A stretch of 64,000 nucleotides of DNA from Patescibacteria group bacterium (GCA_018816885.1 JAHIUS010000001.1:8028-72027); one strand, 5' to 3'; positions 3,763 through 40,185 are shown, counted from the first letter of the stretch. The notes: generated by a model from the letters alone, not told the origin. Program-made: numbers and translations.

Positions 3763-3825
3763 TTTATTTAGTTAGTAGAAGTAGTTGTAGTAGGGTATGG
3801 GGGCCTTCGGTTCTCGGTGATTTTT

Positions 3826-4107
3826 TTATTCTTGATTGTCGTCTTCCGGTTTTTCTTCTTGAGGCCTTGGCTTGCCGTCTTTGTGTCTATAAGTGATTCT
3901 TCCCTTGTTTAGGTCGTATGGAGTTAGTTCAAGCGTTACGCGGTCTCCCGGGAGAATGCGTATGTAGTTCATCCTCATCTTACCTGAAATGTGTGCTCTT
4001 AATGTGTGGTCACTTGGGTAATCGGGATCATCTATCCTCACTTCAAATACCGTATTTGGCAGACAACTTATTACTACTCCTTCAACTTGAATTACATCTT
4101 TAGCCAT
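3826..4107 (-). CDS. infA: Translation initiation factor IF-1 with charged C-terminal extension
   Basis: 93 aa, S1-like core ([10 protein letters not shown]...[19 protein letters not shown]) plus tail [18 protein letters not shown]. Confidence 0.9.
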
Positions 4108-4165
4108 AAATTTTAAAACTTGTTTCTAACCTGTAAAGGGGAAATTTGTCACAAAAAGCTATTGG

Positions 4166-4194
4166 ATTTTAGAGTAAACTCCTCCTGATTTCAA
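4166..4194 (-). promoter_or_regulatory. Sigma-70-type promoter for infA
   Basis: Minus-sense TTGAAA, 17 nt spacer, TAAAAT, about 55 nt upstream of the infA ATG. Confidence 0.5.
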
Positions 4195-4217
4195 GGTCTT
4201 TTTCTCGATTTCGGAAA

Positions 4218-4973
4218 TTAGCTTGACAGGGTCAATATTTCATGGCCTTGTGGCGTTACAAGTATTGTGTGTTCAATTTGTATTGAAAGTGAGCCGTCCT
4301 TGGTTGCAATTGTCCAATTATCTTCGAGAGTCTTGGTATGCCTGGTTTTTTCTCCTATGATCGGCTCGATTGCAAGGGTCATGCCGGGTTTTAGGGCGGG
4401 GCCTTGTCCTTTTTTCCCAAAATTGTTGATTATCGGTGGTTCGTGCAGTTCTCTTCCGACGCCGTGACCTGTCAGATGTTTGATAATGTGGTATCCGGCT
4501 TGTTGAACTACGGATTGTATCGCAAAGCTTATATCTCCAACTCTTTTTCCGGGCTTGATTTCTTTTATCCCGGCCCGAAGTGCTTTTTCGCCTACCTTTA
4601 GAAGTCTTTCCGCTTTCGGATTATCTTTCCCTTTCACAATAAAGGATATGGTTGCATCTGTTATTAGTCCCTGAAGGGTCATGCCGCAGTCTATACTGAC
4701 GAGGTCTCCGGGTTTTAGCTCATATTTTCCGGGGATTGCATGTACAACTTGTTCGTTTACGGAAGAGCAGATTGCTCCGGGAAAGTTTCTATAGCCAAGA
4801 AATGTTGGAGTTGTTCCGTTTTCTTCGCATAGCCGGATGCAGAGTTCATTTAGTTCTTCTGTTTTTATTCCCGGCTTTGCCGCTTGTTTCAGTTTTTGCA
4901 AAGTTTCCGCGAGAATTTTGCCGCATCGGCGCATTATTTCTATCTCCTGTGAATTTTTTAGGGCATGGGGCAT
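4218..4973 (-). CDS. map: Type I methionine aminopeptidase
   Basis: 251 aa aligning to MetAP from KNSQEIEIMRR onward. The only in-frame ATG upstream of that block lies inside the GGGCATN repeat array. Confidence 0.9.
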   Translation of the reverse strand: MPHALKNSQEIEIMRRCGKILAETLQKLKQAAKPGIKTEELNELCIRLCEENGTTPTFLGYRNFPGAICSSVNEQVVHAIPGKYELKPGDLVSIDCGMTLQGLITDATISFIVKGKDNPKAERLLKVGEKALRAGIKEIKPGKRVGDISFAIQSVVQQAGYHIIKHLTGHGVGRELHEPPIINNFGKKGQGPALKPGMTLAIEPIIGEKTRHTKTLEDNWTIATKDGSLSIQIEHTILVTPQGHEILTLSS

Positions 4974-5041
4974 AGGGCATGGGGCATAGGGCAGAGGGCA
5001 TGCGGGCTTCGCCCTCTGCGGGTGCCCCGCCTTGGCGGGGC
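4961..5041 (+). repeat. Composite spacer: GGGCATN heptamer array, stop-proximal hairpin and CCCCGCC/GGCGGGG palindrome
   Basis: Seven G3-4 tracts at 7-bp period (4961-5006), GCATGCGGGCTTCGCCCTC hairpin (4998-5024), palindrome 5024-5041. Confidence 0.9.
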
Positions 5042-5042
5042 A

Positions 5043-38387: not shown

Positions 38388-38513
38388 GTTAGTGTGTAGT
38401 TAAGTAGTAAAGTAGTGAAGTAGTATGTGGTGTTTTGCCTGGCGGCAAAACGGCTTTTTGTAGTTTTTTGGCGCGGGAATCGCTTCGCTTTCTCGCGCTG
38501 TTGTAGGTTAAAC

Positions 38514-38540
38514 TTAGCACGCGACATTATAGAGTGCTAA
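38514..38540. promoter_or_regulatory. CIRCE operator (HrcA binding site)
   Basis: TTAGCACGC, N9, GAGTGCTAA versus consensus TTAGCACTC-N9-GAGTGCTAA (17 of 18). Confidence 0.85.
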
Positions 38541-38554
38541 TTTGTAAGGGTCAA
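38526..38554 (-). promoter_or_regulatory. dnaK promoter overlapped by CIRCE
   Basis: Minus-sense TTGACC, 17 nt, TATAAT. The -35 overlaps the stop codon of the upstream gene. Confidence 0.7.
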
Positions 38555-39603
38555 GAGTTTTTTTGGGTTTTGGGGCAGAGGGTATGGGGCATGAAGTTTT
38601 TCTCCAGTATCTCCATGGTTTCTCCTCCAGCCTTTTTGAACCCGACTTTTTCGTAGCAGCGGATGGCTCTTTTGTTCTCGGGGGAGACTGTTAGGGAGAT
38701 TTTCGAGAGTTTTAATTCTTGAAAGCAATATTTTAAAGCTTCACGGATTGCGGTTGTGCCGTATCCTTTGTCCCAGTAGGATTTTTCGCCGATTATTATG
38801 CCGAGAGAAGGGTCTTTGTCTAAATTGTGGATTCCGATGTTGCCTATGTGGGCGTTTGTTTTTTTGTCGATTATTGCTAGGAGTTTTTCTGTTTTTTTGT
38901 TTAAATTTTCTTCAAACCACTTCTGTTCTTCTTCAAAAGTTTCCGGGAAGGGGCCTGCCATGTGACGGGTGACTTCGGGATCGTTTATCCATTTCCAGCA
39001 TATATCGATGTCGGAGTGGCGGATTGGGCGGAGTAGGATTGAGGGGATAGCAATCTCTTCTAAAAGCTTTTCGAATTTTGTATATCCTGCTTTTTCATTG
39101 AAGTGTCCGGCTCCTCTTATGATATTAACTTTTGTATTTAGGGGTTTAGCGAGATCTTCCGCCAGTTCTAATGGGAAATAGGGGTCATTGTCTGAATGAT
39201 ATATCTGGAAATTTTTGCAGTTTTCTTTGATTTTCTTCCAGTTGAAAGGTTTGGCTACAAATGTTTTTACTAATTCATACCATTCGTTGGTTTTGGGCAG
39301 TGTTTCCGGATTGTATCCGGCTACGAAATAGGCTGATGCAACAGATTTATTTTCGAGGATTGTAAGCAGAAACGGTACCCCGAGGCTGTGTCCGATTACA
39401 ATGGAGTCTTCGTTCAAGAATTCTTCATGTTTTTTGAATACTTTGAGCCAATTTTCGAGTGTATTTCCTTCCGGGGTTGGGAATTTTGGTACAAAAACTT
39501 TGCGACCTCTTTTTTCAAGTTCGTTTTTTAGCCAAGGGAACCAGTTTTCTTCCGGGTGGCCGTATGCACCGTGAATTATGAATATATTAGCTTCCATCTC
39601 CAA
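38551..39603 (-). CDS. Fusion protein: alpha/beta serine hydrolase (YdeN/RBBP9-like) plus GNAT N-acetyltransferase
   Basis: N-terminal half has IIHGAYGHPEENWFPWL...GHSLG...; C-terminal half is RimJ/RimL-like GNAT (WDKGYGTTAIREAL). Confidence 0.7.
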   Translation of the reverse strand: MEMEANIFIIHGAYGHPEENWFPWLKNELEKRGRKVFVPKFPTPEGNTLENWLKVFKKHEEFLNEDSIVIGHSLGVPFLLTILENKSVASAYFVAGYNPETLPKTNEWYELVKTFVAKPFNWKKIKENCKNFQIYHSDNDPYFPLELAEDLAKPLNTKVNIIRGAGHFNEKAGYTKFEKLLEEIAIPSILLRPIRHSDIDICWKWINDPEVTRHMAGPFPETFEEEQKWFEENLNKKTEKLLAIIDKKTNAHIGNIGIHNLDKDPSLGIIIGEKSYWDKGYGTTAIREALKYCFQELKLSKISLTVSPENKRAIRCYEKVGFKKAGGETMEILEKNFMPHTLCPKTQKNS

Positions 39604-40072
39604 CTTTTACTTTTGCCGGTTTTATTGCTTTTCCTTTGAATGCGAAGCCTTTTTCGAGTTCTTCTGTTATTTCGTCTTTGGGGCCGGGGCCTTGCAGGAC
39701 GGCTTCGTGCAGTTCCGGGTTGAGTTGTTCGCCGATGGTTTTGATTTCTTCGAGTCCGAGCTGGGTTAAGGTGTCTATGAGTTGTTTTTCTATCGATTCG
39801 ATGCCTTTGACCCATTCGTTTTCCGCGAGATTTTCCGGGAGGCTTTGGAAGGCTCTTTTCAAATTATCGATTATCGGGAAAAGTGCTTCGAGAAGTTGTA
39901 CGTTTGCGAAGATCCTTAGGTCTGCTTGTTCTTCTTGTATTCTTCTTTTGAAATTCTGAAGGTCGGCGGCTGCTCGCATTGCGGTGTCTTTGAGGGTTTC
40001 GTGTTCTTCTCGGATGCGGGCGAGTTCGAGTTTGATTTCTTGGAGGTCTTGTTTGGGGTCTTTTTGGGTCAT
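39587..40072 (-). CDS. grpE: Nucleotide exchange factor GrpE
   Basis: 161 aa, GrpE-like coiled coil and beta domain. Confidence 0.9.
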   Translation of the reverse strand: MTQKDPKQDLQEIKLELARIREEHETLKDTAMRAAADLQNFKRRIQEEQADLRIFANVQLLEALFPIIDNLKRAFQSLPENLAENEWVKGIESIEKQLIDTLTQLGLEEIKTIGEQLNPELHEAVLQGPGPKDEITEELEKGFAFKGKAIKPAKVKVGDGS

Positions 40073-40083
40073 GGTTTTAGGTT

Positions 40084-40185
40084 GTTAGGGCAGAGGGCAT
40101 CCCCGCCTTGGCGGGGTTCAGGGCATGCGGGCCTTCTCGGCCCTCGGTGGATGTTCCGCTGCGCGGAACGGTTTTTTGTAGTGAG
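40084..40185 (+). repeat. Composite spacer with four module types
   Basis: GGGCAGA units, palindrome 40101-40116, GGGCC-TTCTC-GGCCC hairpin 40129-40143, GTTCCGC hairpin 40153-40169, then TTTTTTGTAGT. Confidence 0.9.

Follow-up and report, generated by a model that had tools for sequence, protein, structure and literature searches.

A species-specific family of short GC hairpins in the intergenic spacers of housekeeping operons of a Patescibacteria group bacterium, tentatively read as a REP-like intercistronic element

The closest described systems to the element reported here are the repetitive extragenic palindromic (REP) sequences and bacterial interspersed mosaic elements (BIMEs) of Enterobacteria and Pseudomonas. 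These are short, GC-rich, imperfect extragenic palindromes which often lie just past stop codons inside operons, are transcribed as mRNA stem-loops, are species-specific, and turn over rapidly. The same characteristics describe a family of short hairpins in a 64,000-nucleotide (nt) stretch of DNA from a Patescibacteria group bacterium (GCA_018816885.1 JAHIUS010000001.1:8028-72027), called the window below; transcription of these hairpins is predicted from their position. The genome sequence examined was approximately 78 kb, made up of the window and about 14 kb of flanking DNA (the L079 tail and L082), and it contained 12 copies, each a short extragenic palindrome of 4-5 base pairs (bp) plus one outer pair, as in REP sequences and REP doublets (REPINs). 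The family was read, tentatively and with somewhat less than even confidence, as a REP-like palindromic repeat that would fold into a weak intercistronic mRNA hairpin bounding an unstructured leader.

The family also differed from REP and REPIN sequences. No GTAG-like head was present, the flanks being TCCACCGAG and GCATGCCC, and there were no inverted doublets, since all 12 copies had one orientation and none was on the + strand. The stems, at only 4-5 bp, were far weaker than REP stems, and the motif was always joined to a tandem heptamer array. No transposase domain, as of a REP-associated tyrosine transposase (RAYT) or other Y1 transposase, was found in the 20 window open reading frames (ORFs) searched with Pfam or among the Pfam labels of the flanking loci, a subset of the ORFs in the roughly 78 kb. 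The arrays in the spacers resembled a second known system, the direct repeats of the heptamer TAACTGA in Beggiatoaceae, cyanobacteria, and Bacteroidetes, which occur directly upstream of start codons, including those of ribosomal-protein operons, and for which a post-transcriptional role was proposed (MacGregor 2015, PMC4679880). As with TAACTGA and the cyanobacterial short tandemly repeated repetitive (STRR) heptamers, tandem 7-nt units preceded starts that had no canonical ribosome-binding sites. Those systems use one fixed unit and no conserved hairpin, whereas here the unit varied and a palindrome bounded the array. Literature searches did not find such spacer repeats described for genomes belonging to the Candidate Phyla Radiation (CPR).

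All 11 copies listed in an earlier note on this DNA were found in place. The pattern GCATGYGGSCN{3,9}GSCCTCKGTGGA produced 5 matches in the window and 0 in 100 shuffles. The 11 copies were aligned in mRNA sense (alignment A1), and the covariance model built from this alignment (R1) re-found 11/11 of them with 31-46 bits. It also added a twelfth copy (22612-22637) that was absent from the earlier list, and a weak remnant (1120-1148). R1 gave no credible match on the + strand or past 40.2 kb in the window, and no copy in the approximately 14 kb flanking the window in the same genome. All genes between 1 and 41 kb were on the minus strand and comprised the alpha, spc, S10, and str ribosomal-protein operons, rpoC, a Na/Ca exchanger gene, ssb, rpoB, serS, dnaK, grpE, and hrcA, with labels that NCBIfam and Pfam checks showed to have been right from the start. 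All 12 copies were intergenic, lying within the 3215 nt of spacer DNA of this block (binomial p = 5e-14), and all were in the mRNA (minus) sense of the flanking genes, spanned 3.8-40.2 kb, and had a stop codon on one side and a heptamer array on the other. No copy occurred among the 3574 nt of spacers at 41-64 kb, where equal density would give approximately 13. The existence, anatomy, orientation, location, and turnover of the family are directly observed.

Three copies, all on the minus strand like the rest, followed the stop codon at 0 nt. The rpsE/rplO copy (7567..7599) read TAA-TCCACCGAG-GGC GAA GCC-CGCATGCCC, scored 45.5 bits and had a predicted RNA stability of -6.2 kcal/mol; the rplB/rpsS copy (13473..13505, 44 bits) had the 3' flank GCATACCC; and the rplX/rplE copy (10411..10443, 42.4 bits) combined the GGCC/GGCC form of the stem with the flank TCCAGAGAG. 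The rplC/rplD copy (15343..15375, 46.5 bits, loop AAA) was 5 nt past the stop and 3 nt before the rplD start, and the rpsL/rpsG copy (22612..22637) was 5 nt past the rpsL stop, with both flanks intact, the loop and one arm deleted (27.7 bits, E 2.4e-4), and a possible alternative in which a heptamer unit takes part in a CAGAGG/CCTCTG pairing. Two copies lay 6 nt past the stop. One, between the Na/Ca exchanger gene and rpoC (27048..27083, 44 bits), had the 5 bp stem GGGCC AUCA GGCCC, and its arm was abutted by a minus-strand array of the 14-mer GGCATAGGGCATGC at 27003..27060 (4.1 copies, 100% identity, Tandem Repeats Finder (TRF) score 116). The other was the degenerate infA copy (3790..3824, 31.1 bits), which lay 5' of a short rpmJ (L36) whose start was 35 nt downstream by sequence reading; L36 was called in the same-species assembly L080.

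The remaining copies were farther from the stop. The adk/map copy (4993..5025, 42.5 bits) was 20 nt past the stop, after a CCCCGC-CAAG-GCGGGG hairpin, and its 5' flank GCAGAGGGC could pair instead with the downstream heptamer GCCCTCTGC. The ssb/exchanger copy (28072..28107, 36.8 bits), with a broken outer pair, was 30 nt past the stop and again after a CCCCGC hairpin. The degenerate serS copy (33175..33209, 37.6 bits), with an internal stem mismatch, was 39 nt past the stop, after a GTTCCGC-ACA-GCGGAAC hairpin. The hrcA/grpE copy (40118..40154, 40.8 bits) was 64 nt past the stop, flanked by two other hairpin modules, and had a 5 bp stem with the loop GAGAA. The copy in the rplC 5' leader (15995..16027, 43.2 bits; stem GGCC AAC GGCC) was 126 nt past the upstream stop and 37 nt before the start, on the 3' side of a promoter-like TTGACT-17-TAAAGT site. 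The possible decayed remnant (1120..1148, minus strand), directly after the rpoA stop, read AAGAGGTCGCC-GCATGCCC and was weak (9.2 bits, E 4.2).

The distances from motif to upstream stop were therefore 0, 0, 0, 5, 5, 6, 6, 20, 30, 39, 64, and 126 nt. Fusion to the stop codon, which the earlier note had made the mark of the family, held for 3/12 copies (rpsE, rplX, and rplB), with 4 more at 5-6 nt, and did not extend to the family as a whole. The distant copies sat after other hairpin modules (CCCCGC-CAAG-GCGGGG or GTTCCGC-GCA-GCGGAAC) or in the rplC 5' leader. The next start codon was 22-50 nt downstream in 9 of the 11 measurable copies, a distance at least as regular as that to the stop. The idea that the motif always abuts TAA carried no signal because TAA is the default stop of the window (53/71, 75%). 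Stop adjacency is a by-product of spacer compaction, a property of the most compact spacers and not of the element or its function. The part of the earlier description that stood is that of a repeated short GC palindrome inside polycistronic operons; stop fusion does not define it.

The motif was approximately 25-30 nt long, with the mRNA-sense consensus (UAA)-UCCAC(C/A)GAG-GGC-GAA-GCC-CGCAUGCCC and the core G-A-G-GGC / loop / GCC-C-G-C. The predicted fold consisted of 4-5 G-C pairs, an A.G (or A.A) mismatch, and one additional outer G-C pair. As the fold spans this outer pair, the seemingly invariant GAG and CGC belong to the helix. The loops were A-rich and 3-5 nt long, with GAA in 5 copies and AAA, AAC, AUCA, GUCA, GAGAA, and GCA in others. 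The stability of the core as DNA was -3 to -6 kcal/mol.

In alignment A1, standard pairs made up 81.8% of cells; column shuffles gave 70%, and controls with the partner slid gave no more than 47%. Change on both sides occurred at one pair only, columns 20/30, where 7 copies had G-C and 3 had C-G. The covariation score was 0.153 against 0.069 in shuffles, from 11 paralogous copies, which are too few. The three C-G copies (rplX, 16000, and serS) all carried an AGAG flank variant, so the exchange at columns 20/30 was probably a single inherited event; the arm-deleted 22612 copy, which is outside A1, had the same AGAG flank and a GGCC arm. The compensatory stem changes reported earlier thus come down to one covarying pair, the remaining variation being stem length and four damaged stems. 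Stems of GGGC, GGCC, and GGGCC between fixed flanks were indeed seen, with the flanks explained by array units as described below. The argument from a variable stem and fixed flanks to selection on pairing is thin, given one covarying pair and four degenerate copies, and on these 11 paralogues such selection is possible.

The heptamer GCGAAGC, described earlier as present in several copies, occurred in 3/12 and was absent from the other 9. Mini-hairpins of d(GCGAAGC) and GNA triloops have reportedly been studied by Hirao and co-workers, and the C-GAA-G core closed by G-C pairs was present in this family. By the usual GC-skew rule, the GAA strand is not placed as the exposed lagging-strand template. 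In the window, GCGAAGC occurred 18 times against 7.2 +/- 3.1 expected (2.5-fold), and 10/10 intergenic occurrences were on the minus strand. Where spacers lay between co-directional genes, in the window or in its relatives, the sense-strand triloop of GC hairpins was GAA 7 times and TTC 0 times, while near-equal numbers of the two are predicted from the base frequencies of the spacers (A.36, C.28, G.13, T.23). The GAA-loop excess and the minus-strand bias of GCGAAGC favour the mRNA-sense strand as the relevant one.

In the sense direction, the spacers had the order stop, hairpin(s), G-poor heptamer array, start. Period-7 arrays were detected by TRF and were present in nearly all window spacers, with a unit that differed between spacers and between species (GCCCNNT, CTAACTA, GCCTAAN, AGCTAAA, and others). 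The 3' flank GCATGCC(C) was the first unit of the adjoining GCCCNNT array (GCCCUAU, GCCCCAU, GCCCUCU, and similar), which contradicts its earlier description as an independent conserved element; the GGCATAGGGCATGC array running up to the hairpin arm shows the same for GCATGC. The 5' flank CAGAGGGC matched the array unit GCCCUCUG (also given as GCCCTCTG) in reverse complement, and it could pair with a downstream array unit in the adk and 22612 copies. Long-range pairing between 5' flank and heptamer as the general structure was rejected, as it works for these two copies only. The mRNA-sense spacers contained 13% G, and their last 20 nt 7% G, so the hairpin was the only predicted structure in the spacer. 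Shine-Dalgarno cores were found for 1/59 minus-strand genes and 2/13 plus-strand genes.

The arrays adjoined the starts of minus-strand genes and the stops of plus-strand genes, and plus-strand genes had no array before the start; the order on the + strand was therefore always gene, array, hairpin. A sibling module, GGT-GTTTyyGC-loop-GCrrAAAC-GGCTT..TTTGTAG, was listed at 32215, 33207, 38432, 40153, 43518, 46228, 56386, 56459, 56533, 59523, 59593, and 61753, always in + orientation, and this held between minus-strand genes, in divergent spacers, and after plus-strand genes. Strand asymmetry was extreme regardless of gene direction. Third codon positions were G/T-rich in plus-strand genes (G.3-.4, T.4-.5) and A/C-rich in sense in minus-strand genes (e.g. 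41025-63349 on the + strand and 41861-63942 on the minus strand). The + strand had a leading-strand signature, yet the ribosomal-protein operons, rpoBC, tuf/fusA, and dnaK were all on the minus strand. The whole spacer architecture looks polar relative to the chromosome strand.

The window (G+C 43%) was identical in sequence to public metagenome contigs (Logan SRR6514274, European Nucleotide Archive (ENA) ERZ928008 and ERZ27247128 (121 kb), and the NCBI metagenome-assembled genome GCA_043810065.1), its L2 protein was labelled as that of a Patescibacteria group bacterium, and its nearest named relatives were Gracilibacteria and Peregrinibacteria. The same operons were compared in L074 (89% L2 identity), L076, L077, and L078 (85%), L070 (81%), L072 (80%), L084 (69%), and L085 (66%); L079 and L080 are two assemblies of the window's own species. 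Among same-species contigs, no differences were found at the covered motif copies, L001 and L002 matching at 100% and L079 and L080 differing elsewhere. Spacers could not be aligned already at 89% L2 identity (L074), which made comparison of orthologous sites impossible. In L070, L072, L074, L076, and L078, nearly every spacer was a tandem heptamer array whose unit was specific to species and site (GCCTAAN, CTACAAC, AGCTAAA, CCCTAnA, ATACTAA), and tandem 7-nt units upstream of starts with no Shine-Dalgarno sequence were likewise seen in these five and in L084. Several spacers in L072, L074, L076, and L078 opened with a small, non-homologous GC hairpin between stop and array, such as GCCC-GAA-GGGC, GCTC-GAA-GAGC, GCCGC-GAA-GCGGC, or GCGC-AAG-GCGC, at varying distances from the stop (3, 11, and >40 nt). 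L084 had short arrays, and short ribosomal-protein operon spacers without GC hairpins; in L085 the spacers were compact and G-poor, contained CTAA, and lacked arrays as well as hairpins. The expansion of arrays plus hairpins is therefore confined to a subclade.

Turnover of the modules is fast. L076 and L077 differed by 2 single-nucleotide polymorphisms (SNPs) in 3.7 kb, yet a 15-nt insertion, ATCGCGCAAGGCGC(T), was present in one only (L076 3752-3766), exactly between the rplB TAA and TCCCC and alongside a synonymous SNP cluster. L079 (at 16157) and L080 differed by a 21-nt indel of three heptamers in an array. Exact-pattern scans returned single hits only, 34 from 185,579 species genomes and 32 from JGI metagenomes, nearly all in high-GC contigs without flanking heptamers, and these were rejected as chance matches since the heptamer context was missing. 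The family is by these comparisons apparently young and species-specific, being absent from relatives at 66-89% L2 identity. No Rfam match was obtained at the gathering score for the whole window, a search by E-value of 15.3-23.2 kb gave one weak match only (E = 0.51), and a tRNA/tmRNA search found nothing relevant.

From the constant place of the hairpin in the cassette, its restriction to housekeeping operons, and the recurrence of GAA-loop analogues in relatives, we infer an RNA-level role. The hairpin is one module of a composite intergenic cassette of stop, hairpin(s), heptamer array, and start, without a Shine-Dalgarno sequence. The motif would be transcribed within the polycistronic mRNAs of housekeeping operons and serve there as a small stem-loop for punctuation, placed where a single-stranded leader has its 5' edge. 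After endonucleolytic cleavage in the array, the 3' end of the upstream cistron might be left base-paired, or the 5' end of the downstream cistron structured; the hairpin could also keep the termination zone apart from the ribosome landing zone. Copies would arise and spread by DNA-level duplication along with array units. Since Shine-Dalgarno sequences are nearly absent, the leaders must work by another route, plausibly through an unpaired region that a clamp delimits.

Several results weigh against this reading. The core stems were weak as RNA at 37 C (-4.7 to -11.5 kcal/mol), and stems of this strength are too feeble to stop the 3' exonucleases PNPase and RNase II. Four of the 12 copies (infA, ssb, serS, and 22612) had mismatched or shortened stems. 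The infA copy had no mRNA-sense fold (two A.C mismatches, -0.2 kcal/mol) and folded in antisense through G.U pairs (-7.5 kcal/mol). The damaged stems argue for weak constraint. The motif was absent from the six loci with 80-89% L2 identity searched with R1, and from the spacers of L084 and L085, which were read by eye. An analogous hairpin is dispensable, being present or absent between the near-identical L076 and L077. Within these operons, approximately three quarters of spacers had no motif, and the sibling module kept its + orientation in 12/12 listed copies. All copies of the hairpin lay in one co-directional block, which makes transcription and replication polarity inseparable.

The main rival explanation, considered doubtful overall, is that the hairpins are a DNA-level by-product of strand-polar repeat generation with no RNA function. 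A hairpin in the template may stall the polymerase, the nascent end may slip, and the adjoining 7- or 14-nt unit would then be amplified, with harmless copies tolerated. The 4.1 perfect copies of GGCATAGGGCATGC directly at a hairpin arm (27003-27060) speak for this explanation, as do the relation of both flanks to array units (the 3' flank a unit, the 5' flank an inverted unit), the variation of arrays by whole units between strains L079 and L080, the presence or absence of a hairpin between L076 and L077, and the persistence of degenerate copies. The polar features fit as well, namely the sibling module oriented to + whatever the gene direction, arrays at the starts of minus-strand genes but at the stops of plus-strand genes, and a strand composition skew that is extreme and decoupled from gene orientation. 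The stalling and slippage would themselves have to be presumed, however, and the motif occurred only in housekeeping-operon spacers, with 0 found against approximately 13 expected in the 41-64 kb spacers on the same strand. Many arrays had no hairpin, and GAA loops exceeded composition in several species, suggesting selection on one strand.

The reading of the family as a REP-like intercistronic hairpin could also be part of a wider scheme, which was held to be improbable. Under it, a CPR subclade near Gracilibacteria and Peregrinibacteria would use the arrays as ribosome landing pads and hairpins with GNA/ANA loops as obligatory boundaries, in place of Shine-Dalgarno spacers. The spacers may then represent a new operon punctuation and initiation cassette whose modules turn over by strand-polar slippage, with the motif of the window as one species' boundary hairpin.

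A mobile REP/RAYT or IS200/IS605-like single-stranded DNA element, in which flanks and hairpin would form the recognition site of a Y1 transposase and be copied on one strand, is distinctly unlikely. In its favour, the palindrome was short and imperfect, had conserved flanks, and was present many times on a single strand, the distribution was species-specific, and the analogous hairpin indel lay exactly between TAA and TCCCC. On the other hand, no transposase-like domain was found in the 20 Pfam-searched window ORFs or the precomputed Pfam labels of the flanking loci, a GTAG-type head and inverted pairs (REPINs) were missing with a single orientation throughout, and the copies were always at the same cassette position beside a GCCC-type array and not at varied intergenic targets.

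Recognition of the hairpin by a sequence-specific protein, as a boxB/nut-like antitermination or processing signal or as the target of a global post-transcriptional regulator, is given similarly little credence. Such a protein would recognize the purine-rich loop together with the fixed flanks, and the stem would need only to pair; flanks that are fixed next to stems that vary yet still pair would agree with this, as would the limitation of copies to highly expressed operons. The lambda boxB is GCCCU-GAAAA-AGGGC, and the purine-rich loops GAA, AAA, and GAGAA on short GC stems resemble it as a nascent-RNA signal. Unlike in lambda, no boxA-like partner motif was seen, there was no N-like protein, no known candidate protein, and no conserved pentaloop, and copies lay between many different genes. 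The array units explain the flanks more simply, the loops were not uniform (GAA, AAA, AAC, AUCA, GUCA, GAGAA), and the motif was not conserved in relatives.

The emphasis of the earlier note, a translational device linked to the stop codon, is very improbable. Here, the hairpin would lie 8-9 nt past the stop, at the mRNA entrance of the ribosome, and would affect termination, recycling, coupling, or stalling. Three copies had identical spacing (TAA + 8 nt + stem), and 4 more were 5-6 nt farther. In the former arrangement, the stem base is at approximately +15 from the P site, just beyond the mRNA channel, and ribosome stalling has been reported for REP elements of E. coli that lie within 15 nt of a stop. 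However, 5/12 copies were 20-126 nt from any stop, one of them in a 5' leader, and the hairpins of relatives stood at variable distances from the stop. The abutting TAA is the default stop at 75%, and the stems are too weak against the ribosomal helicase.

Other candidates were rejected. The motif is not an intrinsic terminator in mRNA sense, as the stem was followed there by GCAUGCCC and no U-tract; at none of the copies was a terminator-like site called on the minus strand, and the few + strand calls came from the T-rich antisense of gene ends. A CRISPR-like origin was dismissed because there was no repeat-spacer array, and a polar motif of the KOPS (FtsK orienting polar sequence) or Chi type because copies were confined to spacers. 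Autoregulatory sites of ribosomal proteins were dismissed too, two copies being at the L24-L5 and S12-S7 junctions and the other ten at unrelated junctions. Integron attC sites are 57-141 nt long with GTTRRRY cores and belong to promoterless cassettes beside an integrase. They share with the motif a conserved outer sequence, a variable palindromic centre, a position after the preceding stop, and a single orientation, but the motif was 25-30 nt long with no GTTRRRY core and the genes were essential, syntenic operon genes; identity with attC was rejected in the absence of the R''/R' core sites (RYYYAAC ... GTTRRRY).

Taken alone, the hairpin family is ordinary, being a small palindromic repeat specific to one lineage. 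Less ordinary is its context in an uncultured CPR lineage, with spacers almost wholly made of tandem heptamers and mini-hairpins, scarce Shine-Dalgarno sequences, and an extreme strand asymmetry independent of gene direction. The main interest therefore lies in the surrounding architecture and not in the supposed stop-codon link. If the cassette is functional, it would show how bacteria without Shine-Dalgarno pairing punctuate and translate their operons; as a mutational by-product, it would be a clean natural case of hairpin-associated microsatellite growth shaping bacterial spacers. A caution applies either way, that conserved flanks plus a variable stem do not prove selection at the RNA level when repeat units make up the flanks.

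Further features were observed in the spacers. The sibling module resembled an intrinsic terminator on the + strand, and it was also present in L070 and L072 in operon-sense orientation. A 74-nt two-hairpin unit (2.5 copies, 99% identity) occupied the divergent spacer at 56380-56566 and contained GCTGGTGG, the E. coli Chi octamer. The tuf/rpsJ spacer (17251-17451), of approximately 200 nt, was conserved in relatives, unlike all other spacers (L070 7053-7248, L072 7515-7713, L076 1-255); it held the paired segments GCCTGGGTAAAACCCCC...TTTACCCAGGC and CCGGGATTCCCTCCCGG, had no Rfam match, and may be a structured leader or a small RNA. The region 5' of rplC (15963-16150) contained the promoter-like TTGACT-17-TAAAGT site followed by a leader, GCAAGTTTAAAATTTGCAAGTTAGAAC...GGCTCCCACGCGGAC, conserved in L070, L076, and L078, again with no Rfam match; this region may be a ribosomal-protein leader. 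A CIRCE-like inverted repeat (HrcA operator), TTAGCACGC-N9-GAGTGCTAA, overlapped a TATAAT-like box 5' of dnaK at approximately 38509-38535. The 14-mer AGTACCAAGTAATG (9.8 copies, 99% identity) ran at 44102-44238 from a spacer into the annotated 5' end of the ORF at 43621-44193, and because of this extension the annotated start of that ORF was probably over-called.

Observations were also made on the genes. ORFs without a Pfam match lay inside the S10 and str operons (16151-16894, 21007-21456, and 21533-22057), and relatives also carried ORFs at the equivalent positions. The NCBI and ENA gene calls of one sequence (L069 and L070, respectively) differed, those of NCBI being fragmented with many ribosomal proteins missing and those of ENA intact; the fragmentation may be an annotation or genetic-code issue. 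TGA terminated 3 ORFs in the window, including rplN at normal length, and never occurred in frame. The genes for ssb and the Na/Ca exchanger (27087-28743) split rpoB from rpoC.

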